From a virus: a stretch of 64,000 nucleotides of DNA. Shown here piece after piece: positions 12,744-64,000 of this stretch (positions are counted from its first letter, which is position 1; every line of letters starts with the position of its first letter). The notes beneath the pieces are model-generated. The model saw nothing but the letters and a program-made list of their open reading frames with translations, made no database searches and was not told where the DNA came from. The stretch is from the IMG/VR virus record IMGVR_UViG_3300023179_000038, positions 46,678 through 110,677 of that record; one strand, given 5' to 3'. The position numbers and the translations under genes were made by a program.

Positions 12744-15700
12744 TAAATTCTACCACTCCTTATTCTTAAAGAATCTATCTGCCTTATCTTAGACATTACA
12801 GTGTTTGCAATTTGTTCTGGATTTGCATCAGACCTTACATTAACACTTAAATTATAATTATAAACTGAGTTTCCGTCATATGTTCCGTTATTGATAGCCT
12901 TCATTTTGTCTACACCAAAAGAATCTACAGCATATCTACTCATCACAAATTCTCCTGGTGTTAACATTGCTGGTACTGTATCTGTTCCACGAGCAAATCC
13001 ACCAGAAACAAAATACTTAGGAACTATACCTCCATTTGCTCTTCCAAACCACCCACTAAATGTATTTGTGAGAGCATTTTTTACTGTTGAAACTGGATTA
13101 GTAACTATATTTTTAACTGCCGTCGCAACATTAGATATTCCTGTTGATACAGACTTTGCCACATTTGATACACCAGAAGCCACTGACTTAACTGCATTAG
13201 ATATAGGAGTAGTAACAGTAGAAACAACTTTAGATATTGGATTATTAACACCAAGATTCATTCCAATACTTGAAGGGCTTGTTGTAGGAACTATTTTTGT
13301 TGATGCACTTGTTACTCCCGATAATGGATTATATTTATCTGGACCAGTAAATGTTGGAACTGATGGAACGTTAGTCTGGGTATTTGACATTTGTTGTGTT
13401 TGAGGTCCTGAACCTACTTCTGTTGTTTTAGTTGGAGCATTTCCTGTATTTGTAGTGGTTGACACTACTGGAGGAGTTTCGTCATCTTTTAAAGTTACAA
13501 TTTTATGATAAGTTACATATGTTTTATTGTTAAGATCATTCCAATAATTTTTAATACTTTCTACAATTCCTAATGCAGCAAACATTGAATTTTTATATTC
13601 ATTACTACTTGTTTTTGCTGTATCAATTCCATTTTTAATAGATTCCCATTCAGATCTTGATTTATCAAGAACCCTTAAACTATTAATTAGTTCATTTTTT
13701 TGAATCTCTGCAAGCCTTATAGATTCTCGTGCTGGCTCTAATATTTTTTCTTCTAAAATTAAAATTTGATCTTGAAGGTTTTTTATTTTTTCTTCAATTT
13801 GAATTCTTGTATACCCCTGATCATTTCTAATTTTTGCAATACTATTTTCTTTTGATTGCTCAAGTGCAGATCTTTGTTGATCTATTGCATTTTGGGCTGA
13901 TTGAGATCTTGATTCTTGTACCGCTTTTGCAGCAGCAGCAATATCTCCTTGTGATAAAGCATCAGCAATTGTTAATTGAGATTTTTGTTGTTGAATTATT
14001 CTATTGTTTACTTTTTGAATTTGATCCAATGCTTTAAATTTGTCTTCATAGGAATCGTTTATTGCTTTTTCCTGATTTTCAATATCTTTAAGTCCATACT
14101 CCCAATCATCAATTTGATATTGAATTAATGCAATATTATTTTCAGTTTTTTGTATTAAATCTTTATTGTTTCTGGTATCTATGTCAAATTTTAATTCTAT
14201 AGATTTTTCCTTAGCATCAAAGGCTTCCATGGCTTTACCAAAACCTTCATCAAATAAACCTTGCATAAAGTCTATTGTCTTTATTTGTTGTGCAAGCCTT
14301 ATTGCAAACTGACTACCGCCCTGTTCTCCCGCTTCATACAGTGCTTTTAATATTGGATCTGAAATTATTGCTCTGGCTTCTTTAAATCCAAAACTATTTT
14401 TTATTGACTGCGTAATAATTTCATCTTGATTGGCTTCTTCTATTGCTTTATTTGCATCTTCAATAGCCGTGCTTCTTTTTTCTTGTTTAATAAAATCATT
14501 ATATAGCACTATCATTTTTTGAAGTTCTGCTTTATTTTTACTAGTAGCAATCATTGCCCTAAATGATTTATCGGCAATTAATTCGTATGCTTTACCAACT
14601 GGAACACCCAATTGAGTTAATTTTGCATATGCCTTATTTTGATCAACTAATTCTTGTTTTTGTTGTTGTATTGCAGATTGAAAATCTCCAGCAACAACGG
14701 AATTTAATGCTTCTTGTATATTAGTGGCATCCCTTTTTAAAGCAATTATATTTCCTTTGTTGTCAAATTTAAATAATGAATTTTTACGCTTTTCATATTC
14801 TTTTGGATCCATTCCAACAATTAATTCTATTAGATTTTGTCCAGCACCAATCGATCTTAAATCTTGCTCAATTCCACTGAATGCTGTTATTGTTTTATTA
14901 CCACCAAATAACTTATCTAGCGCTTTACGTGAAGATGCCCATCCTTCTGTAACCTTAATTTGATTTAATCTAACATCTTTTAATTTTTTAATAATATCGT
15001 CTAACGGAGAAGAACTTACTTTAGATCCTTCTACAGGAGGTATATTAGATTTTTTATCTGTAGTTACATCCTTAGAAGCAACAGTTACTTTGTATGCTGA
15101 CTCAGCATAGTAATCTCCTTCGGTTTTTCCAGGATTTGCTTTAAGCCAATTCTGAATTGCTTCCTTGTTGTTACCCTCCATATTGACCATTGTTGTTAAT
15201 GTTTGCAGGTACACCTTTTGTTGCTCTGGAGGTAATGAGTTAAAATATTCTTGATTTGCACGAAGAACCTCTATTTCTTTTGCACCAAGAATTTTTGTTG
15301 CAATTTCTAAATCAATCTTACCTTTTTGAGCGCTAATATAATCTATGGTTTTTTGTAGTTGCGCTGCTGCGATTGGATTATTGCTATAAAAACTTAAGGC
15401 AACCCCTACATCAACTACTTGACCAGACTTGCTTATCTCAGAAAATAATTTTAGATATTTTTCTGCATCAGCAGCAGTTTTTGTACTAATATCGGCAAGG
15501 AATTTAGTTTGTTGCTGCTTTAATGGTTTTCCATTTTTATCAACAAACAAACTTGATATAGCAATAGCCTGGTTTGCAAATGCACCACCAAATTTAGTTA
15601 CAATACTCATAACTTTTTCTAAAGATTTTTTATCATTACTAAATGTTTCCATTAAGTTAATAATTTGCATTGGGTCCATCTGTCCAGAAGCAACTTGCAT

Positions 15701-18700
15701 TTTTAATGTATATTGAAGTTCTTTGGACATACCACTATCATTAATTAAATCTTTAGCCATGGGAACAATGTCTTCCATTGCTGTACCCTTATATTTTTTT
15801 GTAATGGCTTTATCTATACCAGTTTCTAAAGCACCACGAACAGCACTAGAAGATTTTGCATAAGTATTTTGAATATCTGTAATCAATCTTCCGTTTTCAG
15901 CAATTAATGTTGCATTTGCTTTTTCATATTCACCCTGCAATCTAGTTGCTTCCGCAATATCATTTGCTGCCTTTGCATTTTCAATTCTTTTTTCGTATTC
16001 TAATCTTAAAGAATCTTGCATTTCTTGACTTTGTTCTAAAGCCATTTTTTGTATTGCAACATTAGCACCAGATGCTATTCCAAGTTTTTGTTGTTGTCCT
16101 TTTTGTGCAAAGTATAATGCTCCTGCTGAAATAGTTGCACCTATTGCTGCACCTATTGCAGTTCCAACAACTGGCACAACTGATCCTGCTGCTGCTCCTG
16201 TTGCTGCTCCACCGAGTATTCCACCAGCAATTGCCCCACCAATACCATAACCAGCCATACCAACTTTTGTTTGTGTTTGTGTTAATGCCCCTGGTGCTGC
16301 AGCATTCAATATTCCAAATTTTTGTTGTAAATCTTTTCTTGATTCTTCTACCAATCTTAATCTAAGTTGTAATGGATCCTTCATTAAATTTTCTCCATTA
16401 ACACCTACTAATTCAATTAATTTTGCATTAACCTGTATGCCAAAAGAGTAATCGCCCAATTCAGAAGAAATATTTGCTGCAATGCTTCTTGCCTGTGCTG
16501 GATTTATTGCTCCTGATGCAATTCCTGTTGCAAGTTGATTTAACAACTGGTTCTGTGCAGTTTGCCTTCCATTAGTTTTAATAGATTGAGATAGGTTTGA
16601 AAGCATTGCCTTGCCACCTTCAGATTGAACGTAACTTTCACCAAAAGTTGTTTTTCCTGTTTGAATCTGAAATTGAGAAAGCATTTGTGATCTTCTTCTA
16701 TCCATAATTTCGCCAGCACGAGCAGTTCCAGCGAACTCAGAAAGATCCTGAATAGCCTTTTCGCCACTACCCATGGCTTCAGCCATTTTCATTGCGTTGT
16801 CTTGTGCTTTATCAAATGCCATACGTAATGCAAGTGTTGCTGCCACTACAGCAGTTAAACCAACAGCAAATGCTCCAAGTGGACTTGTGATAAGTGGCAA
16901 TAGCATTGTTAATGTAATTAATGGCATCATTAATTTCTGTGCTACCTCGCCAACTTTTCCTGGTGCCATAGACGCAGCCATCATAACCCCAGATGCTGCC
17001 ATCATTCCAGTTCCAGCACTCATTCTATTTCTTCTGACTGAAACATTGTCTTCTTTATTTATACCATTAGCAACCATTCCAGTGATTGTGCTTTGTTTTA
17101 ATAATCTTTTTTCTTTAATAGCATCAAGTCTTTGCTGTTTATCTATTTGTCTACGCAATGATTTTTGCATTGGATCAATAGGACCAGTTCCATAAAGAGC
17201 AGTTCTAGATGCAACTGCTTTTTGTGACTGTGTTCTAGCCCCGTCAACTAGTGCTGTACCTAATTGTTTTCCAGTTATCTTTGCATCATCAATAAATTCT
17301 TTTGCTCCAACTACCAGACCCTTTCCAGATTCCTGTCCAACTTTTTGCATTCTTCTTGATGGAGATTTAATCTGTAACGCTTCTTCTGCTGCAGTTGGCA
17401 TAGAATTTACTATTCTTGCAATACCACGTTTTAAGGTTCCTTCTGTGCGTTTTGTTGCTGCAATAATTTCAGTAGTTTGTTTAGACATTGTTTCTGTTCT
17501 TGCGGTTGCTGCATCTGCCACTGCACCTGCATAAAGTCTAAAGTTTTTAGAAACATCTTTTGCTTTAATAACACCAGTTGACATATCTCTATCTATTGCA
17601 GAAAGAACTCTGCCTTGAATCATTAACTCATCACCAACAAGTGCAGTTCCTTGTGTTACTTTTGCAGTAATTGATTGAATTTGTGATTCTGTTGCACCTG
17701 ATTTAGATAAATATTGTAAATATAGTTCTCTATTTTTTCTTGAAGACTTTAAAGAGTTTGATAGATTATTCTCTGCACCAGTTTGTGTAGTCCAAACATC
17801 TGAATTCCAAGCAGCAAGCAATTTTTTCTGTGAATTATTTAATTCAATGACGTGTGCCCTGTCTAACTGTGTTGCAGCAGTAATTTGTTTAGTAGTAGCA
17901 CCAAGGGCTGTCATTTTCTTTTCAATTGCTTTTGCTGCTGCATTTGCTTGATCTAATTCTGCTTGTGCTGCTGACATACCTCGTTCACTAATTAGTTGTG
18001 TCTGTATTGTTCTTCTTTCTCCAGCGCCACGTGCATTAAATGTTGCAGTTCTTCCAACCCAATCTGATTTAGCAAATGCTGGACCTGCAATCTTGCCTTT
18101 GCTTGCTGCTGCTAAACGAACCTGCTCTTTAAATTGTTCAAGATTAATTTTTGTTTCAGATGCCAATTTTTCTAATGCAATTTTTAGTATGTCGTCAATT
18201 TGACCGAGAGTTCCATCAATAAGACTTTGAATTCTTGCAGTAGTTGCTTGTTGTTTTGTACTTATATTAAAAGATTCTTGTCCAACATTAACAGATCCTC
18301 CTGCAAACTTAGATAATCTGCCACCACCTATCATAAACTTAATTGCTGGTTTATTTGCTGGATCTTGTGCTGGTCCTGCTGGAATTACTGCTTCTCCTGG
18401 TGTAAGCATGGATGGAACGGAATCTGTTCCTCTTGCATAGTATCTTACTCCAATAGTACCTTTGTTAAATTTCTTTGGTCCTTTACTACCTCTACCGCCA
18501 ACAAAACCAGCGGTTGGCATAAACGCTGCTTGAGCACTAATTGCTTTTCTATATACATTAACCAATGCAGTAAGAGCATTGGTTTCAGATGTAAAGGTTT
18601 GTGTGAGTTTGGTATGAACTTGATCTAAAGATGATGCAACTGAGGCAGCCTCTAGTTGTTCTTGTGTCATATACTGTGTTTGATTGCCAAGGGATTGAGA

Positions 18701-55289: not shown

Positions 55290-56057
55290 ATGAAAACTAA
55301 AATACTTTCAACGTTAGAGCATTCTAAAAAGTTAATAATTTCGCCAGATATGGATGGTTTTATGTCGGCGCAGTTATTAAATAGATATAATGGTTCTAAG
55401 ATAGTTGGGACCTACGATAAAAATATTTTATGTCTTGCAGACAATATTAGTCCTAGGGATTGTCTTTTTGTAGATTGCGATATAAATCATCCAGATTATG
55501 TTTCTATTGGCAATCATATGCGACTACTACAGGACAATATGTCTAACAAAAGTTTTAATCCAAATGTTCATTTCAACATAACAAGATACTTTGACAAATT
55601 CCCATTTGCAACCGCATTTTTGATTGCATTTGCTACAGAGATTGACACATCGACAAATGATATAGAACGCATGGCCTATGCTGATTCCACATTAAGGAAT
55701 ATGGAGTCTTACAGCAACAACATGCGAACATGGTCTAATAGGATGAAATGTCCATCTGTTGACTATATAATAGAAAATACAGATATTGCAAAAGATACAG
55801 ATAATAAAATTAGACAGATATACACAACACAATCTTTTACATCTAAAAAATACGGTAAAAAAAGATATATAGAAACCCTAAACCAACAATTTAAAAAGGA
55901 GGGGATTGAGCATGAAGAGATTACCCACGGATATAAGTATTTATCGGACAAGGTTGGTTTAACCACTATGAAGAAGTATATGTGTGATATTTTCTCATAT
56001 GCTGAGATTTTTTCAGGAGAGTATTCAGTTACATATTATGATACTATAGATTGGTGA
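55290..56057 (+). CDS. DHH-like phosphoesterase
   Basis: SPDMDGFMSA (DxDG), FVDCD, GNH, YADS. Confidence 0.55.
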   Translation: MKTKILSTLEHSKKLIISPDMDGFMSAQLLNRYNGSKIVGTYDKNILCLADNISPRDCLFVDCDINHPDYVSIGNHMRLLQDNMSNKSFNPNVHFNITRYFDKFPFATAFLIAFATEIDTSTNDIERMAYADSTLRNMESYSNNMRTWSNRMKCPSVDYIIENTDIAKDTDNKIRQIYTTQSFTSKKYGKKRYIETLNQQFKKEGIEHEEITHGYKYLSDKVGLTTMKKYMCDIFSYAEIFSGEYSVTYYDTIDW

Positions 56058-56254
56058 TAGATGATGTTAAGTTTTCAGATTTATTTAATCCTTCTCAGCC
56101 AAGAAGTGATAGGGAGTTAATTGAATACCGTCTGAAAATTTGTAATGGTTGTGCAAGTTTTAATAAAAGACTTGCAAAATGTAAAAAATGTGGTTGTTTC
56201 ATGAAATTAAAAACAACATTAAAACTAGCGAAATGTCCAATAGGGAAATGGTGA
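56051..56254 (+). CDS. Small Cys-rich protein (paralog of 49047-49289)
   Basis: RLKICNGC..CKKCGCFMKLKT.L..AKCPIGKW. Confidence 0.7.
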   Translation: MVIDDVKFSDLFNPSQPRSDRELIEYRLKICNGCASFNKRLAKCKKCGCFMKLKTTLKLAKCPIGKW

Positions 56255-56259
56255 GTAAT

Positions 56260-56445
56260 ATGAATAGAGAAGAAGTAATTGAACTAATGACTGAAACAAT
56301 TTTAAATTTAAACATTGGTTTGGCACGTCAAAATAATATGCCTGAAGATCAAATTGATAAAATGGTAGAAAATGCCAAACCTCAATTTAGAGTAGTTAAT
56401 GGTATTTTATATGATGTGCTAAAAGAGAATGGTGCTTTTAATTAA
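56260..56445 (+). CDS. Hypothetical protein
   Basis: Probable start MNREEVIE. Confidence 0.5.
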   Translation: MNREEVIELMTETILNLNIGLARQNNMPEDQIDKMVENAKPQFRVVNGILYDVLKENGAFN

Positions 56446-56983
56446 TTACAAAGACATTGGTCACAGCATTTGTCTTGAAAAATTTTTAATGCCAAACCAT
56501 CATTAATAATAGGTTCGTCTTCTTGTAATCTTGCTATCTCTGTTTCAAAACCTTTAGGGGTTTGTCTACTCCATGATTCTGTATGTCTAGATTCCATGTT
56601 CCTCCATGTATTTTAGACGTTCCATTAATTTATGATGTTCTGGATCTTCAAGCATTTCTTTAATAGCGTCTGTAACTTTTTTACTTGGTTTACCGTCGTC
56701 TGGTCTACCTAAATCTTCCCAAAATTTTTCTCTACCTATAGAGTCTGTTTCTTTTATTTGATTTGACTCAAACTCAAAAGATGATGCAATCATTTGCAAG
56801 AAGAACAAAAATTATTTGCTCTTAGATTTTCTTTAGTAACCCAAATAACCTTGCCACAGTGGTAGCAAGATTTCATAGAGTAATTTTTTTCTCTACGGTC
56901 TTTACGAATTTCTAGTCCTAGTAAGTGCATAAATATATTCTAGCATACTTGATCTACTCTGTCAAATAGTGTATACTGGTTAT

Positions 56984-57205
56984 ATGGAAAATCCTTATAT
57001 GGAAAATAAATTAAGATGGCTTGCTGCAGAAAAAAATATGTCAGACCTAATTGCTGCTTCAGGAGCGTTTAACTTAGATGAGGCTCTTGTTGCTGTTGCC
57101 AAACTACATTTTCCACAAGGCACATCAGGTAACAGATGCAAAGAAGATAAAAAACCTTGGCCTTGTCCAACCATTATGGCCATTGAAAAAGAATTGACAA
57201 AATGA
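56984..57205 (+). CDS. Hypothetical protein, probably leaderless
   Basis: TATACT 6 nt before ATG at 56984; C..D..PWPCPT motif. Confidence 0.55.
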   Translation: MENPYMENKLRWLAAEKNMSDLIAASGAFNLDEALVAVAKLHFPQGTSGNRCKEDKKPWPCPTIMAIEKELTK

Positions 57206-57365
57206 TAACTGATAATTTAACTTGGGAAGAAGAAGACCAAAACCTTTGGAAAGGTTGGACCTACAGCCTTTCAAAAAACAGATATTATTTTGATGATATA
57301 GGAAATGAATCTTTAGCAGAATTCTGGAATGATCCATTTTTAAACCAAGCATATGAGGAGAGATT

Positions 57366-57755
57366 ATGATATTTCACAAGCATTTACTTATTAACGCTAA
57401 GGTAAAGGATCCAATTAATAGTGAAGATCAAGGTGTTGATTTTCTTACCCGCTTAGTTGATCGTATAGATATGAAGATTATCAAAGGACCTTTTGCGTCT
57501 TATGTTGACAAACCAGGCAATCGTGGACTTACGGCTATAGTAATGATTGAGACTAGTCATATTGCTTTTCATATATGGGATGAGATAGATCCGTCATTAG
57601 TTCAGTTTGATTTATATACCTGCGGAAAATTAAATCTTGCTCAGGTTCTTCTTGCTTTTGGAGAGACCTTTAATATTATAAATATTGACTATCAATTATT
57701 CGATAGAGAAAACGGATTTGTATTAGAAGATAAAGGCTCTTGGCCAGAAATCTGA
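57366..57755 (+). CDS. speD: S-adenosylmethionine decarboxylase proenzyme
   Basis: HLLI, GLTAIVMIETSHIAFHIW (self-cleavage at SH), DLYTCG. Confidence 0.85.
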   Translation: MIFHKHLLINAKVKDPINSEDQGVDFLTRLVDRIDMKIIKGPFASYVDKPGNRGLTAIVMIETSHIAFHIWDEIDPSLVQFDLYTCGKLNLAQVLLAFGETFNIINIDYQLFDRENGFVLEDKGSWPEI

Positions 57756-58437
57756 AAAAATTTTTAAAAAGCGTTTTCATAAAAATCTGAATATTTTTCT
57801 CAAATGTATGATACAGGTTTAAAAAAATAAAATAAAAAAAATATAGTGAGCACACTACTTAGAGTAGTGGGCCCTATCATAATTTGCAAGGGTGCCACCA
57901 TTTTCTAGGTGGGCCTTGCGTCTTAATTGCTCAGCAGAATACTCAGCCATTTATTTATATTTTCTCATCACTCTAATAGAATAAATCAATCCTATAGTAG
58001 CAACGAGCAACCATGTAGGCAATTCTATTGCTACACCATTTGGATATAGGTTGTTAATATAAAATGCTATATATTCTAAATCTGCGTAGAACTCCATTTT
58101 ATTCCTTGTCCTCTCCGAACATTTCTACTAACACCTTGTTAGCATTTTGTAAAGCCTCTATGGCTTCGTTAATCTTATCAGCGTTAGTCATAGTTAGTTT
58201 CCTATCTTAGCAGACATAACCCAACGGCTTTCGTTAGGTGAAAGGTATTTGTGAGAGATAACTCCTTGAGATGATACCAACATCTCTAGGTATGCCTTTC
58301 GGCTCATGTAGTTTCCTACTGTATTGCGAAACAAATTGTTATCGCCTGTATTAGATGAAGCCATAACATGGTTAGGCTCTAGTACTATTGTATTTAGTGA
58401 AGTCATTTTAACTTCCTTTCTTTTTTCTATACCCGCT

Positions 58438-58459
58438 AGTCTAGCAGGGGGGTCTGACA
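58438..58459 (-). promoter_or_regulatory. PafBC/RecA-NDp-type promoter
   Basis: TGTCAG-N10-TAGACT on minus strand. Confidence 0.7.
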
Positions 58460-58487
58460 TTTTGGGGTCTTATTTGCTTAGGCTCAC

Positions 58488-58503
58488 TGTGATTTGTATC
58501 ACA
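58488..58503. promoter_or_regulatory. CRP-family-like site (perfect)
   Basis: TGTGA-TTTGTA-TCACA. Confidence 0.7.
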
Positions 58504-58783
58504 TTTATTTGCTAAGGCTCATACCCTAAACTTTCTATATTTAATTTGATACTGGTATCCTATCATAGATAATCCTAAAAGTCAAGAGCAGACACGGCGT
58601 GTCGCATGTGATTTATACCACAAGACAATTGGTGCAAATCGGACATGACCTCGGCGCTAACGGCGTGTCGTCCACATGATATAAATCACACCCTTATGTT
58701 ACGCTTAAGTTATCCACATGACGTACATCACATCAGCGAATTGTCTGCTATGTCCGTTTTGTTATATCTACTGGCTAGTAGAA

Positions 58784-58805
58784 TGTCAGTGGTAGGTGTT
58801 AGAAT
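58784..58805 (+). promoter_or_regulatory. PafBC/RecA-NDp-type promoter
   Basis: TGTCAGTG...: TGTCAG-N10-TAGAAT. Confidence 0.72.
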
Positions 58806-58856
58806 ACTAGTATAAAGATTGAAAAAGAAGTAAATCTCTTAAAGAAAGGAATTCAA

Positions 58857-59368
58857 ATGAATTCACTACTAAATAAAAAGTGTGCTAAACACTTACCAAA
58901 TAAGTTAGCGATATCATTGGTAAATGATATAAAATATACCTTCTGTGAAAATTGTGAGCAGAATATTTATTCTCACTATATTGAGGATAGCGAATTGCTA
59001 TCTTATTGGTCTTCATGGAAGGTAGGTAAGTAATATGGAAAAACTTATTTGCTGTTTTTGTGAAAGTGTTTCATCTAGTGAAGCAAAGTTTTGTTTCTCA
59101 TGTAATGAATATAAAGGCTTAATGCCAATATCTAAATTTGATAATCTCTACGGAAGGAGATAAATAAATGATAACTAAAAAATGTATATCATGTAATGGT
59201 ACCGCTATGGTATCTAAAGTTTCTATCCCTGCTATTTGCGATAATTGTATCGCTAAGAATTGGAGTAAATAAATGATAACTCTTAATTGTCGTCTATGTG
59301 ATGAAAAAGTTTCTAGCAATTTATTTGATGAGCAAGATATAATTACTTGCTCAAATTGTTGGGAATAA
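58857..59368 (+). CDS. Four consecutive Cys-rich microprotein ORFs (58857-59033, 59035-59163, 59168-59272, 59273-59368)
   Basis: Manual translation; tightly packed with RBS-like motifs and CxxC pairs. Confidence 0.65.
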
Positions 59369-59735
59369 AAAAATGCTTAACGAAATAAAAAATAAAGTAA
59401 TTCGTATTCAAGAGTTGCGTCGTAGTAATGCTGCGACAGCAATTCCAAATAAAAAAAAATATACTAGAAAGGTAAAACATAAAAATGGAAAAACAAAATA
59501 AAGATATTTTTAATTTTGAAAAAGCAATTCAATTAGATCACTTAACAAAAGATGAATTAGAATTAGTAGAAAATATTTTAAAAGATTTTAAATAAATTCT
59601 GCTAAAAAAATCCCGAGGCGTTTTGTCCCAAATGTCCGTTTACGTACGATGTGTTTAAGATCACAGAAATCTTGTGGCGTAAATCACACCGCTGAGCGTC
59701 TTACTATTTAAGACTACTCGTGGGTAATTTGTAAA

Positions 59736-59757
59736 TGTCTGCTAATTTTGGTAAACT
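59736..59757 (+). promoter_or_regulatory. PafBC/RecA-NDp-type promoter
   Basis: TGTCTG-N10-TAAACT. Confidence 0.6.
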
Positions 59758-59795
59758 TACAGAGTAATAAAAATAAAGAAAGGAAGTGGCTATAA

Positions 59796-59996
59796 ATGGC
59801 TAACTTATACACAATAGAAAACCTGCTAGAAGGTAAAGAGTATAATTCACGCTCTCTAAATGGTGAAATAATAAACGCAGAAAAAACAGACCATTGGTTT
59901 GGTAATGGAAAAGAAGCGTATCGTGTTCTAATCAGAACGCCTTATTCTTATAAAGACCACTATCGCATAATAGCGGTAAAAGTAGGTGATGAATAA
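59796..59996 (+). CDS. Hypothetical early protein
   Basis: ORF after GAAAGGA RBS. Confidence 0.65.
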   Translation: MANLYTIENLLEGKEYNSRSLNGEIINAEKTDHWFGNGKEAYRVLIRTPYSYKDHYRIIAVKVGDE

Positions 59997-60113
59997 TGGG
60001 ATATATTGAAATCTTTCGCCTTGATGAGCAGGGCGCTGGCTGGGTTGACCTTTCTGAGGCTACCCCTCAAGAATTGCTAGACCTTGAAATAGGCTTATTT
60101 CAGGAAGGGGCTT

Positions 60114-60129
60114 TGTGAGATAAATCACA
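60114..60129. promoter_or_regulatory. CRP-family-like site (perfect)
   Basis: TGTGA-GATAAA-TCACA. Confidence 0.7.
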
Positions 60130-60157
60130 AGGCAACACACCCCTAGCAGGTAGAAAA

Positions 60158-60179
60158 TGTCAGGGGTTTTTGATAGGAT
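60158..60179 (+). promoter_or_regulatory. PafBC/RecA-NDp-type promoter
   Basis: TGTCAG-N10-TAGGAT. Confidence 0.7.
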
Positions 60180-60213
60180 AGTCTTATCAAACAATAAAGA
60201 AAGGTAATCAGAA

Positions 60214-60399
60214 ATGACTTATACTGTAAAACTAGAAACCTATAATGGTGCTGTAAAAAATATCAACCTACCTTCTAAAGGTGCTGTTGCTCAATTCATA
60301 AACACTTACCCAAACCAACTACCTGTTGGCGTATCTGTTAAATTAAATTGTGATGTGCTTGGTATTAGTGGCACACTACGAGGAAAGGCGTTAGCATAA
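60214..60399 (+). CDS. Hypothetical early protein
   Basis: ORF after GAAAGG RBS. Confidence 0.65.
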   Translation: MTYTVKLETYNGAVKNINLPSKGAVAQFINTYPNQLPVGVSVKLNCDVLGISGTLRGKALA

Positions 60400-60529
60400 T
60401 GATAAATTCTGTAATGTCTTTTGATTGTAATGAGTGTAATGGTAAAGGTTTAATCTTTTGGGGAGATAACCTTGACTACAATGTAGAAAAATGCGAGTGC
60501 GATAATTTTGCGTTAGGAAATTTATTCTA

Positions 60530-60733
60530 ATGAAAACAATTAAACACTCTCTACACTTTGTAACTGAGTTAGATGAAACTAATCCAACTGCTAAACAATT
60601 ATTAGACTTACCTGCTGATGAGCAAATAATGCTTTTAGAGGGTATGCTTAAAGAATTAGTTGCCCCTAAGTTATCTAAAACAATTAAAGAGTTAAACGAA
60701 AATAATTCTTTTGCAACTCTAAGGTTGGCTTAA
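60530..60733 (+). CDS. Hypothetical early protein
   Basis: Coupled ORF. Confidence 0.6.
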   Translation: MKTIKHSLHFVTELDETNPTAKQLLDLPADEQIMLLEGMLKELVAPKLSKTIKELNENNSFATLRLA

Positions 60734-60735
60734 TA

Positions 60736-60927
60736 ATGATGACTAGAAAAGACTATATAAAAACCGCAAATATCTTAAAAGGATTTGTTGATGAAATTCC
60801 ACAAACCACTTATGAGGATTTAGTAAATGAATTTGCTGAGTGGTTCAAATCTGATAATGATAATTTTGATTTTGCAAGATTTGAAAAGGCTTGCGGAATT
60901 GATGAGATTGGTTTAATTCCAGTTTAA
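60736..60927 (+). CDS. Hypothetical early protein
   Basis: MTRKDY..A....DN.NFD.ARF.KAC motif. Confidence 0.65.
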   Translation: MMTRKDYIKTANILKGFVDEIPQTTYEDLVNEFAEWFKSDNDNFDFARFEKACGIDEIGLIPV

Positions 60928-60973
60928 TAAATAAAATCCCCTCTAGAACAAATGTTCGGAGGGGGCCGAGGGG

Positions 60974-60994
60974 TTTTCCACAGGTTTATCCACA
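60974..60994 (+). promoter_or_regulatory. Tandem DnaA boxes
   Basis: TTTTCCACA-ggt-TTATCCACA. Confidence 0.65.
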
Positions 60995-61047
60995 GGCCTT
61001 TACGTGTGATTAAAAACACACCCTGAATTCCCCAGATTTTTTGATTT

Positions 61048-61069
61048 TGTCAGCCTAATCTGATAGGAT
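61048..61069 (+). promoter_or_regulatory. PafBC/RecA-NDp-type promoter
   Basis: TGTCAG-N10-TAGGAT. Confidence 0.7.
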
Positions 61070-61094
61070 AAAGATATAACGAAAGGAAAACTAA

Positions 61095-61280
61095 ATGAGT
61101 AAAATAAAAAATGCTATTGAGCAGATAGTTAATTGTGATTATTGCTATGGCGTAGGTTGGGAATACTACGGAAATAATGAGGATTGGAATATAGACCCTT
61201 GCGAGTGTAATTTGTATTGTATTCCTTCTGATGAGATAATGGAATACCACCAATTATTTAGAACAAAGGAGAACGCATAA
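61095..61280 (+). CDS. Small Cys-rich early protein
   Basis: CDYC.G.G...CECN. Confidence 0.6.
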   Translation: MSKIKNAIEQIVNCDYCYGVGWEYYGNNEDWNIDPCECNLYCIPSDEIMEYHQLFRTKENA

Positions 61281-61489
61281 TGGAATATAACTATTCACTT
61301 ACTACTTCGTATGACGGAGAGTTAATTCATACCCTGCGAGTTAGCGATATGCTAGAAGCAGTAGACGCATGGAATAAATGTGTAGACTATGGAACAGCCA
61401 AAGAATACGCAACCTATAACTTGTCAGACCCTATGGGCAAAATGTACACTAAAACCTTCTACACTAACGGAGAAGTAAGTGTTAGATAA
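61280..61489 (+). CDS. Hypothetical early protein
   Basis: Coupled ORF with GGAG RBS. Confidence 0.6.
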   Translation: MEYNYSLTTSYDGELIHTLRVSDMLEAVDAWNKCVDYGTAKEYATYNLSDPMGKMYTKTFYTNGEVSVR

Positions 61490-61588
61490 TTTAATTGATA
61501 TGGTGGTAGATATGCGGTCTGCCACCCTTGATCAAAATAAGATAATCGCATATAATCAGATATTAGAAATAATTGAGGAGAAACTATA

Positions 61589-61885
61589 ATGGGAAGTGTA
61601 ACAGCAATAGGTCTAGCGGATACAACGCTAGACTTAGAAACACAATTACTTTATCACTTACAGGGTAATCACTATCCACCAGTTCCTAAAGAAATGGTTC
61701 AACCTTGTATTGAAGCAATTGACGCATACTATGACGAGGATTACTCACGCATGATAGATATGCCAATGGTTGGTAATTATCAAATTACTTACAAAGGCAA
61801 TAAGCAAGCACCAGCAAGCGCAATAGTAAGCCAGCACCACTTAGAGTGGTTTATTAATCCAGCAGATGAGGACTTGTATGAGTAA
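61589..61885 (+). CDS. Hypothetical early protein
   Basis: HLQGNHYPPVP...HHLEWF; GAGGAG RBS. Confidence 0.65.
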   Translation: MGSVTAIGLADTTLDLETQLLYHLQGNHYPPVPKEMVQPCIEAIDAYYDEDYSRMIDMPMVGNYQITYKGNKQAPASAIVSQHHLEWFINPADEDLYE

Positions 61886-61956
61886 AGAATTGCAAGATAA
61901 ATTAGATAAGGCTTCAAAATTATTGGAGCCTATCTTGTGGGAAACATTGGCAGAAA

Positions 61957-62208
61957 TTGAGGAACAAAATGATTGATCTAGAAAATGATGATACTATTCA
62001 GATTGTGGACTATGTAAAGGTTGACTTATTAACTTCAGGGCAATTAGAAATTGACGATTGCATTCTAATTGGTGATGAAGTTGTGTCTATTGTAGATATA
62101 GTTTCACTACCTGATGGATACACTTTAAAAGTTGTAAATGATTTTGGTGAAAGAGATATCATTGAAGTTGGTGAATACGACCAATTTGATTTAATGATGT
62201 TGCAATAA
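61957..62208 (+). CDS. Hypothetical acidic early protein
   Basis: ORF; probable start MIDLE. Confidence 0.55.
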   Translation: MRNKMIDLENDDTIQIVDYVKVDLLTSGQLEIDDCILIGDEVVSIVDIVSLPDGYTLKVVNDFGERDIIEVGEYDQFDLMMLQ

Positions 62209-62294
62209 AGCGGGGCCCGAGGCGATGTCCGTTTTGTCCTATTTAAGCAATTACGTGCACTTGTATTTTTGTCCTGAAAACGTTATAATTAATT

Positions 62295-63017
62295 ATGACC
62301 CAATTAAAGAGATCTTATGACAGAAAAGTGGCTAACCTTGTATCAAAAAACGGAAAGCAAGCAGCAATTGCAAACACGTTCGGTTTACCCGCTGGAAAGA
62401 ATTATTCATGCCCTGGTGCCACTATGGTTTGTGAGAATGTTTGTTATGCAGGAAAACTCGAAAAACTCTTCAAAGGAGTAAAGACTAATCTCCTGCACAA
62501 TTGGGAGTTGTTAAAAGACGCAGATCAAGAAACTATGGAAAAGTTATTGGGTGCAATGATTGATGATTTTAGAACAGATTGTGAGAAGAAAGACGCAGTT
62601 ATGCTATTTCGTATTCACTGGGATGGTGATTTTTTTAATGATACTTATACCAACGCATGGCGCAATGTAATTAGAAATAATTTTGATATAAAATTTTGGG
62701 TATACACTAGAGTACACTCTGCAGCGCTAATGCTCAAAGGTATACCTAATCTATCTTTATACTATTCAACAGATAGCGAAAATAAAGAGATAGGTGTTAG
62801 TCTTAAAAAAGATCATGGTGTTAGACTTGCATACCTTGCTAAAAATTTTGCAATAGGCCAAGCAGATATGAAAGAATTATTTAATCGTCCTGGCGCTAAG
62901 TGTCCTGAGAACTTAAAGTCAATTCCCCTTATCTCAAATGCTGGAAGCGCTTGCGTATCTTGCGGATTGTGTGTATACTCTAAGAGTGATATCGTATTCT
63001 CATCATCTAAAAAATAG
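62295..63017 (+). CDS. GP88-like (radical-SAM-related) phage protein
   Basis: FGLPAG..SCPGAT..C...CYA, FRIHWDGDF, FWVYTR, C-terminal CP..C..C.LC. Confidence 0.7.
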   Translation: MTQLKRSYDRKVANLVSKNGKQAAIANTFGLPAGKNYSCPGATMVCENVCYAGKLEKLFKGVKTNLLHNWELLKDADQETMEKLLGAMIDDFRTDCEKKDAVMLFRIHWDGDFFNDTYTNAWRNVIRNNFDIKFWVYTRVHSAALMLKGIPNLSLYYSTDSENKEIGVSLKKDHGVRLAYLAKNFAIGQADMKELFNRPGAKCPENLKSIPLISNAGSACVSCGLCVYSKSDIVFSSSKK

Positions 63018-63114
63018 GAGAAAAAAGTGGATTGGAAATTCTACCTATTTTGCTGGATAATCTTATTTCTTATTTATCAGTAAAATGTCCGTTATGTCCG
63101 TTTCGATATGGTGG

Positions 63115-63130
63115 TGTGAGATACATCACA
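63115..63130. promoter_or_regulatory. CRP-family-like site (perfect)
   Basis: TGTGA-GATACA-TCACA. Confidence 0.7.
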
Positions 63131-63239
63131 GATACCATATCTCAAAATATGAGATTATTAGAAAAATAACTTGTATTTTTAGCCAAAAAATGTTAGACTT
63201 AAACAGTAAGTAAAACCAACAAGAAAGAAGGAAAACCAA

Positions 63240-63406
63240 ATGGCAGTATCAACAGCAACCTACAAAGTAGGCGACACTTATACTTCTCAGAAGTCTAAGA
63301 TTACAGGCACAATTCAAGAAATCAAGCCAAACACAGACGGAACTTCCGTTCGTGTAAAACTTGATGTTAATGGTCAAACACGCTGGACAACTTGGACAGC
63401 AAAGTA
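63240..63406 (+). CDS. About 54-aa small protein (not in ORF track)
   Basis: MAVSTATYKVGDTYTSQKSKITGTIQEI...RWTTWTAK; upstream TTGTAT-N17-TAGACT promoter and AAGGA RBS. Confidence 0.65.
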
Positions 63407-63519
63407 ATTCCTAATACAGGAAAAGACCTGAGCATGTCTGCTAAAACTGCTCAACTTGAAATTATCATAGCAAAATGCTAGGATAGAAACCCCTAACAAA
63501 GAAAAGGAAAACGACCCAA

Positions 63520-63945
63520 ATGGCAACAAGAGGAAAAGCAATAAATGTAAAAATTGCTACATCTAAGGTTATTACAGCCTTAGAAAATAGATTAGCAGAA
63601 CTAGAGGCTAACTACAAAAAGCAAGATGAAAACGAAGCAAATTATCAAAAAGCACTAGAGGCTTGGAAAAAAGATTTATTTGCTTATGCTATCGCTAACA
63701 TCTCTAAGGCAGAAAATGTTAGAACCAACTATCGCAACTGGACAAAATCTCTAAATATAGATTTTGACTTAACAGCATCAGAAAATGAGTTCCCTGCTGA
63801 ACCAACTAGGGACTTTCAACAACTTCATCAACACTCTTACAATGAGCAAAAAGAGGAAATGGAAAACGCTATTCGTATCCTTAAAATGACGGACGAGGAA
63901 ACAGTTAGCACATCTACATACAACGCTATCGCAAGATACTTGTAA
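63520..63945 (+). CDS. Hypothetical coiled-coil protein
   Basis: ORF with AAGGA RBS. Confidence 0.65.
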   Translation: MATRGKAINVKIATSKVITALENRLAELEANYKKQDENEANYQKALEAWKKDLFAYAIANISKAENVRTNYRNWTKSLNIDFDLTASENEFPAEPTRDFQQLHQHSYNEQKEEMENAIRILKMTDEETVSTSTYNAIARYL

Positions 63946-64000
63946 TTAGATGGGGGAAGGGTATTTGACTTCCCCCCTAAAAAATGTTAGACTTAATACA

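Follow-up and report, generated by a model that had tools for sequence, protein, structure and literature searches.

The DNA analysed here (the window) is the last 64 kb of IMG/VR virus record IMGVR_UViG_3300023179_000038, which has 110,677 bp, 33% GC and a completeness judged 99%; coordinates are counted from the first nucleotide of the window. At 58407-58856 lies an intergenic region of 450 bp, the hinge, bounded by the ATG of a leftward gene (58406) and the ATG of a rightward gene (58857). An earlier reading of the sequence (the original prediction) had described a divergent hinge at this place, built as a mosaic of apparent host operator sites. A hinge between divergent units is indeed present, but the range of 58560-58805 assigned to it was too narrow. 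Every motif listed was located at its given coordinate. The inventory of promoters was incomplete, and a leftward PafBC-type promoter, a canonical leftward promoter and a set of iterons had been overlooked. The hinge contains three outward promoters and is probably the master control region of early transcription, with host factors as its inputs.

Promoters and motifs of the hinge

Two of the three promoters are of the PafBC type. PafBC is activated by single-stranded DNA (ssDNA) and inserts between sigma-A region 4 and the DNA, a mode called 'sigma adaptation' (PMC8635444, PMC11804915). Its promoter consensus is tGTCgg(N10)tA(N3)T, the GTC being read by PafB R46 and R50 (PMC8635444). The rightward promoter P_R1 (TGTCAGTG-N8-TAGAAT, 58784-58805, + strand) matches this published geometry, as had been predicted. 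The leftward promoter P_L (TGTCAGAC-N8-TAGACT, 58438-58459, - strand) has its -26 element at 58454-58459 and its -10 element at 58438-58443. Neither contains a sigma-A hexamer at the -35 position 17 nt upstream of the -10, which reads GTAGAA at P_R1 and CCAAAA at P_L. When nine orthologous hinges were aligned, GTC was invariant, and so were the first T, the A and the last T of each -10 box. The invariant -10 positions of P_L are 1, 2, 4 and 6; the three middle bases vary at P_R1, and variable bases between a fixed T, A and T read as the signature of a TAnnnT box. Conservation in an alignment of 25 de-replicated orthologues was 0.86 and 0.72 for P_L and 0.91 and 0.73 for P_R1. The third promoter, P_L2, was found by a -10-anchored scan and is a canonical sigma-A promoter with a TG extension (TTGACT-17-TAGGAT, 58557-58585, - strand). 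Its -35 element, seen on the + strand as the conserved AAAAGTCAAG, reached 0.96 in the 25-orthologue alignment.

P_L and P_R1 share with the mycobacterial PafBC-dependent (RecA-NDp) promoters the bipartite tGTC(g/a)g-N10-tA(N3)T, the lack of a -35 element and the invariant GTC (PMC8635444, PMC11804915). They differ in setting: the phage element heads early operons and is joined to upstream CRP-type, DnaA-type and other sites, and its dependence on PafBC is predicted.

A perfect CRP-type palindrome, TGTGATTTGTATCACA (58488-58503), begins 44 nt upstream of the TGTCAG of P_L. It is flanked by two direct 17-nt iterons, TTATTTGCT(T/A)AGGCTCA (58470-58486 and 58505-58521); the TTATTTGCTAGGCTCA iteron ranges from 2 to 5 copies among relatives. 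The three CRP-like sites named in the original prediction are confirmed at 58607, 58675 and 58717, and the perfect palindrome adds a fourth just beyond the range then covered. Site 2 (TGTGATTTATACCACA, 58607-58622) has one mismatch and the highest conservation of the hinge CRP-like sites (0.79), and site 3 (CATGATATAAATCACA, 58675-58690, + strand) has two mismatches. The weaker site 4 (58717-58732) overlaps a DnaA box, TTATCCACA (58710-58718), within the composite GTTATCCACATGACGTACATCACA (58709-58732, + strand), which has a conservation of 0.74-0.76 and is repeated 42 bp upstream in relatives. This box, also anticipated, is a perfect match, and the same box is found around dnaA of the candidate hosts.

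The palindrome GACACGGCGTGTC (58591-58604) includes the 11-mer ACGGCGTGTCG, which abuts the -35 element of P_L2. A second ACGGCGTGTCG (58660-58670, + strand) overlaps CRP-like site 3 and the DnaA-like TCGTCCACA (near-match box 58668-58676). The GACAC within these sequences had been equated with the WhiA motif. GACAC is present on both strands at 58591-58603, but the 5-mer is uninformative and under-describes the conserved element of 9-11 nt, GGCGTGTCG; that WhiA binds GGCGTGTCG is a hypothesis.

Repeats of ATGTCCG point outward at both sides of the hinge. The leftward repeat (58640-58646, CGGACAT on the + strand) stands next to CCGAGG (CCTCGG on the + strand, 58649) in a block spanning 58640-58654 on the - strand, and relatives have two tandem copies in its place. 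To the right, ATGTCCGTTTTGTT (58750-58763, + strand) is a TGTCC(G) tandem repeat with a 9-nt step, located 34 nt upstream of the P_R1 -26 element. The palindrome CTACTGGCTAGTAG (58768-58781) follows immediately upstream of P_R1, and its TACTGG..AGTA core reappears in other cassettes of relatives. Both the TGTCCG repeats and this CTACT-GGCT-AGTAG palindrome had been reported correctly. The palindrome ATACTAGTAT and the near-invariant AGTATAAAG (58804-58817, + strand, conservation 0.93) lie over the predicted P_R1 start and are a candidate operator or conserved initial transcribed sequence. By-eye comparison of the orphan motifs with consensus sites for NrdR, LexA, IdeR, MtrA, PhoP and GlnR gave no fit. 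An open reading frame (ORF) within the hinge (58645-58815, + strand) was dismissed as a gene; it has no ribosome-binding site (RBS), and relatives carry insertions or deletions of 10-11 nt there.

The leftward gene (58194-58406, - strand) encodes 70 amino acids from the ATG at 58406 and is preceded by the RBS AAAGGAAG (58412-58419, - strand). It is poorly conserved, with an orthologue in 3 of 80 related loci, whereas the promoter region is conserved, and its candidacy as a conserved repressor was dropped on that count. The first rightward operon (58857-59368, + strand) encodes four consecutive Cys-rich mini-proteins of 58, 42, 34 and 31 amino acids (CxxC...CxxC). Further Cys-rich mini-proteins are encoded at 60399-60530 and 61095-61280. 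Pfam/PHROG scans of four such proteins (58, 42, 43 and 61 amino acids) gave no family match; the 34- and 31-residue ORFs were not scanned. These proteins are candidate factors for host takeover or for binding DNA or RNA polymerase.

Recurring cassettes and conservation among relatives

Shortened versions of the hinge cassette stand before each early operon up to the window end. Blocks opening with CCGAGG had been predicted near 59610, 60960 and 62215; they are present at 59613, 60966 and 62217, and an inverted copy is at 58649. Cassette 2 (59613-59757, + strand) contains CCGAGG, TTGTCC/ATGTCCG repeats, CRP-like sites at 59650 and 59673, and promoter P2 (TGTCTGCT-N8-TAAACT, 59736-59757). Cassette 3 (60114-60179, + strand) has a perfect CRP palindrome (60114-60129) that begins 44 nt before P3 (TGTCAGGG-N8-TAGGAT, 60158-60179). 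Cassette 4 (60966-61069, + strand) comprises CCGAGG, two tandem DnaA-type boxes 12 nt apart (TTTTCCACA at 60974 and TTATCCACA at 60986), a CRP-like site at 61005 and P4 (TGTCAGCC-N8-TAGGAT, 61048-61069). P_L, P_R1 and the promoters at 59736, 60158 and 61048 make up five TGTC(A/T)G-N10-TAnnnT sites, all within 58438-61069 and each followed by an RBS and an ATG. P2 and P4 show the weak hexamers TTGTAA and TTGATT at the -35 position and are hybrid promoters.

The last two cassettes have canonical promoters. Cassette 5 (62217-62297, + strand) contains CCGAGG, ATGTCCGTTTTGTCC and TTGTAT-17-TATAAT (62261-62289), which ends 5 nt before the ATG of a GP88-family gene (PF17338). Because the TATAAT lies so close to the start codon (62284-62297), the GP88-family mRNA is predicted to be leaderless or near-leaderless, a trait common in actinobacteria. 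Cassette 6 (63085-63199, + strand) contains tandem ATGTCCGTT at 63085 and 63094, a perfect CRP palindrome (63115-63130) and TTGTAT-17-TAGACT (63171-63199). A terminator scan at the starts of the CCGAGG blocks found no convincing terminator, and an Rfam scan of 56000-64000 gave no family at E <= 0.1, leaving a known RNA element unsupported. The CCGAGG(C/G)G of the window occupies the position of CCGGCGTGTCG in relatives and may be a decayed copy of it.

The motifs are clustered in the genome. Within the 110,677 bp, all five copies of TGTCCGTT are on the + strand at 58751-63095, all four copies of CCGAGG are at 58649-62217, the three perfect TGTGA-N6-TCACA palindromes are at 58488, 60114 and 63115, and both copies of ACGGCGTGTCG are within the hinge. 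CRP-like sites with at most two mismatches number 8 in the window against 5.45 in shuffles, which is within the shuffle range; all 8 are in the last 5.5 kb. The clustering of motifs in the last 5.5 kb of the genome exceeds chance.

The motifs were counted in 80 related loci (1.1 Mb), using the backwards pattern as control. The PafBC-type motif occurred 551/58 times (early-gene strand/other strand) against 1/10 in the control, the CRP palindrome 350 times against 1, TTATCCACA 151/163 times against 6/3, and GGCGTGTCG 155/86 times against 0/0. GGCGTGTCG is the most over-represented early-region word in the family, exceeding the Markov expectation 245-fold (173 unique contexts, 0.7 expected). ATGTCCG(T/A)TT is about 30-fold and GTTATCCACAGG 23-36-fold over expectation. 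The -26-type promoters occur in 463 unique contexts, 420 of which are oriented with the early genes, and their consensus comprises an A-rich stretch, TGTCAG and an extended -10. Their density rises from five in this genome to as many as 16 per 13 kb in relatives.

The motifs are also conserved in place. The hinge is 78% identical to relatives over 658 nt, and among the 25 orthologues mean identity was 0.65 at motif positions and 0.455 at other intergenic positions, a result reached by 2 of 2000 circular shifts. The motifs are therefore not less conserved than their flanks. Not all of them are equally fixed: conservation in place is 0.19 for the second 11-mer (58660), 0.44 for iteron 1, 0.47 for CCTCGG and 0.52 for the CTACT..AGTAG palindrome.

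Spacing relative to the promoters follows rules. Perfect CRP-type palindromes begin 44 nt (n = 49), 54 nt (n = 20), 64-65 nt (n = 29) or 82 nt (n = 7) before TGTCAG, distances that step by about one helical turn; within the window the spacing is 44 nt at P_L and P3 and 43 nt at P4. ATGTCCG is oriented with the promoter in 102 cases and against it in 6, at 24, 33 and 41 nt upstream of TGTCAG. DnaA-type boxes form arrays of 2-5 in relatives with a tandem spacing of 11-13 nt. GGCGTGTCG occurs in two settings. In the first it stands 2 nt before a TTGAC -35 element: ACGGCGTGTCG-NN-TTGAC was found in 76 unique contexts of the family, 48 of which have TAnnnT exactly 17 nt past the -35. A scan of viral contigs for this arrangement gave, among the matches listed, some that resemble the family little or not at all. 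In the second it marks the 5' edge of a cassette and is followed by DnaA-type boxes, TTACGT, a CRP-type site and the promoter.

In a divergent contig of 67.7 kb, IMGVR_UViG_3300047548_000785, nine TGTCAGTGG-N7-TAnnnT promoters are packed into 3.4 kb; several of its TGTCAGTGG promoters are preceded by TTGACA at the -35 position and are hybrid -35/-26 promoters. The left half of the hinge (58385-58622, comprising P_L2, the iterons, the palindrome, P_L and the gene start) behaves as a movable promoter module, since it is inverted and displaced by about 1 kb in more distant relatives.

The phage and counterparts in candidate hosts

The phage encodes a WhiB-family protein, and its portal is 45% identical to those of Stanwilliamsviridae Streptomyces phages. 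Freshwater and lake metagenomes of several studies contain the window stretch nearly complete, and megablast of the region against GenBank phages gave zero matches. Relatives of the GP88-family neighbour protein are encoded in at least 579 IMG/VR stretches. Because of its whiB gene, freshwater distribution and low GC, we infer a host group of low-GC freshwater actinobacteria, with the Nanopelagicaceae as candidate hosts. The actinobacterial frame of the original prediction is justified, despite the low GC, by the WhiB protein, the Streptomyces-phage-like portal and the freshwater metagenomes.

A host search with the phage WhiB and NrdJ in genome contigs returned a single match, a phage-like contig of 5.6 kb in a Beijerinckiaceae metagenome-assembled genome (JBIPLL010000608.1). 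It encodes a WhiB 64% identical to that of the phage and is probably mis-binned phage DNA. Searches for integrase and resolvase domains in the phage found none, and for this reason the phage is probably virulent; a temperate lifestyle with the PafBC-type promoters as a damage-induction switch was dropped on the same ground. Searches for WYL, Crp helix-turn-helix and sigma-70 region-2 domains in the phage were likewise negative, and 20 proteins from 55290-63945, mostly small early ones, showed no DNA-binding domain in Pfam and PHROGs.

Nanopelagicaceae genomes were reached with a 16S probe sequence, and the taxon was confirmed. The samples comprised five Nanopelagicaceae genomes, 61 Nanopelagicales genomes (about 85 Mb) and one complete Planktophila genome. 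In all five Nanopelagicaceae genomes the recA promoter reads TGTCAG(T/C)(G/C)-N8-TAC..T, with the SOS box TCGAACAGATGTTCGG right after the -10. All five also encode two adjacent WYL proteins orthologous to M. smegmatis PafB and PafC (7P5X), in which the RMFERDK segment with R46 and R50 is identical. The single candidate-host Crp matches M. tuberculosis Crp (3D0S, 3MZH) with E = 2e-76 and has an identical recognition helix, ASRETVNKALADFA, of the RE..(R/K) type; it is predicted to read the phage CRP-type sites. WhiA is encoded in the candidate hosts as well. The complete Planktophila genome has 14 perfect TTATCCACA boxes. Five of them, at 94, 106, 1584, 1595 and 1330991, flank dnaA (domain match 512-997) and include tandems spaced by 11-12 nt, like those of the phage cassettes.

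Two side observations concern the candidate hosts. GCGACAC, the reverse complement of the GGCGTGTCG core, is conserved 8-12 nt upstream of the recA TGTCAG in the five genomes, with variable flanking sequence. A divergent intergenic region of Planktophila (1092440-1092480) contains CGAGG-TTTTTGGGGCTCGGGCGTGTCG; the 5' cassette edge in relatives (TTTTGGGG..CGGGCGTGTCG) looks similar.

Proposed mechanism and rival explanations

The motifs, their promoter geometry, their conservation and their host counterparts suggest the following mechanism, in which the binders and the direction of their effects are predictions. Host RNA polymerase with sigma-A would read the -26-type promoters P_L and P_R1 only with the host activator PafBC; use of host PafBC is most simply what these promoters imply. 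As ssDNA switches PafBC on, early transcription would be coupled to an ssDNA or DNA-damage signal that infection can create. Host Crp would bind the upstream TGTGA-N6-TCACA palindromes at helically phased distances and host DnaA the TTATCCACA boxes, adding nutritional and replication-state inputs. The oriented ATGTCCG repeats, the TTATTTGCTAGGCTCA iterons and the palindrome at the P_R1 start would be further putative protein sites. We can envisage that transcription begins at the canonical promoters, that PafBC is then activated by ssDNA arising from injection, replication or the breakdown of host DNA, and that activated PafBC finally boosts the promoters of the -26 type.

The CRP-type sites, being phased, are as expected for an activator that binds upstream and makes contact with RNA polymerase. 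Like class I CRP promoters and the actinobacterial Crp/GlxR regulon, they combine TGTGA-N6-TCACA, often with a central TA, with steps of about 10 bp upstream of the core promoter. They differ in being centred at about -64.5, -74.5 and -84.5 relative to the inferred start, not at -61.5 and -71.5, in being coupled to -26-type rather than -35-type promoters, and in that the candidate hosts are nearly without the perfect palindrome. The DnaA-type boxes could modulate transcription, mark an origin, or do both. GGCGTGTCG beside -35 elements is a possible target of host WhiA together with phage WhiB. Its GACAC just upstream of the -35 (ACGGCGTGTCG-NN-TTGACT), together with phage WhiB and host WhiA, is compatible with WhiA/WhiB dual activation, for which Streptomyces targets show variable motif strand and spacing (PMC10243135, PMC3781837). 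The phage unit, at 9-11 nt and often palindromic, is twice as long as GACAC and is not enriched in the candidate-host genome.

The proposal of a multi-input host-state sensor is borne out in so far as the hinge is a conserved regulatory mosaic in which three motif classes (PafBC, CRP and DnaA) have host counterparts; WhiA is its weak member, and the CRP consensus is scarce in hosts. Several points weigh against the host-input reading. It would be surprising for the very first genes to be placed under a promoter that requires activated PafBC. Streptomyces phage Jada, the nearest cultured relative, is without any PafBC-type site. The 61 Nanopelagicales genomes contain 7 perfect TGTGA-N6-TCACA sites, where the backwards control has 21, and CRP sites with at most one mismatch were not enriched in non-coding DNA of the complete Planktophila genome. 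GGCGTGTCG, ATGTCCGTT and TAGGCTCA, including the iteron core, were not enriched in that genome either; nor was TGAGCAGTTT, tested genome-wide. No direct phage-host link was found, and the host is one that we infer. Since the cassettes are paralogous, shared ancestry instead of selection may underlie some of the constancy in spacing.

We consider it rather unlikely that the sites are instead operators for phage-encoded regulators of early-to-middle timing, such as the Cys-rich early proteins or WhiB and a partner, with the likeness to host sites due to coincidence or mimicry. An adaptor made by the phage would, on this account, recognise the TGTCAG element. T4 middle promoters offer the precedent: there an element nearer the -10, the MotA box at -30, takes the place of the -35 element, and sigma region 4 carries an adaptor (AsiA, 'sigma appropriation'); moreover, the parallel between PafBC promoters and T4 MotA-AsiA has been drawn (PMC8635444). 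Several observations speak for phage regulators. No counterpart of GGCGTGTCG, ATGTCCG or the iterons was detectable in the complete candidate-host genome, and iteron copy number differs between relatives. Perfect CRP palindromes number about 0.1 per genome in the 61 Nanopelagicales and 3-10 per 10-17 kb of phage early region. A palindrome lies over the P_R1 start site, and the early ORFs encode uncharacterised zinc-ribbon-like mini-proteins. The T4 adaptor, however, is phage-encoded and serves middle-class promoters, whereas no phage adaptor was detected here and the element is the host's own: its TGTCAG-N10-TAnnnT geometry is the same as at candidate-host recA. A phage substitute for PafBC or Crp is disfavoured because no WYL, Crp or sigma domain was detected; nor was another recognisable DNA-binding domain. 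The first promoters, moreover, need to fire before any phage protein is made, and the sites lie upstream, phased and activator-like, not over the core promoter. Among the matches listed for ACGGCGTGTCG-NN-TTGAC there are also contigs that hardly resemble the family or show no detectable similarity to it.

It is improbable that the hinge is, or overlaps, a replication origin where the DnaA boxes and iterons would attract host DnaA or an initiator made by the phage, with transcription from the promoters activating the origin. Such a role is compatible with the hinge being an early control region; the two are not mutually exclusive. The perfect and DnaA-like boxes, the direct iterons and an AT-rich segment (58520-58580) are as expected of an origin, the tandem box spacing of 11-13 nt is as in candidate-host oriC, and Jada has four TTATCCACA boxes in a gene-free gap of 1.07 kb. 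The boxes are scattered over several promoter cassettes, however, with no single cluster, and the AT-rich segment is not above the genome average and houses the P_L2 core promoter. A better origin candidate is the denser cluster that relatives carry downstream of the GP88 gene, at a distance of about 7.5 kb. This cluster, of 3-5 TTATCCACA boxes in many relatives (e.g. locus positions 15453-15680 and 16050-16441), is not present in this genome, and the corresponding place is beyond the contig end.

A sponge that titrates host Crp, DnaA or WhiA off chromosomal targets after phage replication, the other function proposed in the original prediction, found no support and is very improbable. Consensus-grade CRP sites are far commoner in the phage than in the candidate hosts, and replicated phage DNA could out-compete chromosomal targets. 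The sites per genome are few, though, and no datA-type titration-like array was seen. The strict orientation (102 against 6 for ATGTCCG) and phased spacing to promoters imply that the sites act in cis on transcription. That short motifs of low information content match AT-rich intergenic DNA by chance, as suggested by the shortness of words such as GACAC and TGTCCG and by the CRP-like site count within the shuffle range, is refuted by the genome-wide clustering, the 20- to 245-fold enrichment over the 80 loci and the positional conservation.

Taking the hinge as an early control region with host inputs, we tentatively extend the reading to the whole freshwater actinophage group, which may transcribe its early genes from PafBC-only promoters with Crp and DnaA sites, so that lytic entry would depend on ssDNA, cyclic AMP and DnaA status. 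Going by the GP88 relatives the group is large, and the bacteria that it probably infects rank with the most abundant in fresh water. That phage early regions draw on host factors is already known; the new element is that promoters of the PafBC type are employed systematically and together with Crp- and DnaA-type sites. The literature searched contained no paper linking PafBC to phage promoters and no description of a PafBC -26-based phage promoter class with such sites. If the reading is correct, the main early promoter type of a phage is one that it has taken from the stress response of its host, and a testable mechanism would tie the DNA-damage, nutritional and replication state of streamlined planktonic actinobacteria to the outcome of their infection. 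Natural compact PafBC-responsive promoters would also be gained, together with conserved orphan motifs (GGCGTGTCG, the ATGTCCG repeats and the iterons) for the discovery of new regulators.

Jada (Stanwilliamsviridae, portal 45% identical) offers a comparison within the lineage. Near a divergent gene pair it has a gene-free gap (120604-121675) with a single perfect TGTGA-N6-TCACA and four TTATCCACA(GG) boxes, of which two are spaced 12 nt from each other. Across the 127.7 kb of Jada, unlike in the present genome, neither a PafBC-type promoter nor GGCGTGTCG occurs. The presence of DnaA and CRP sites without a -26-type promoter indicates that the DnaA/CRP pairing is older in the lineage than the PafBC-type promoters. 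The Jada boxes are of the E. coli type, TTATCCACA, and not of the Streptomyces type, TTGTCCACA. Host DnaA sites beside phage early promoters are also known from lambda pR/ori-lambda; in contrast to those, the boxes described here are arrayed in tandem, occur in several cassettes and share bases with CRP-like half-sites.

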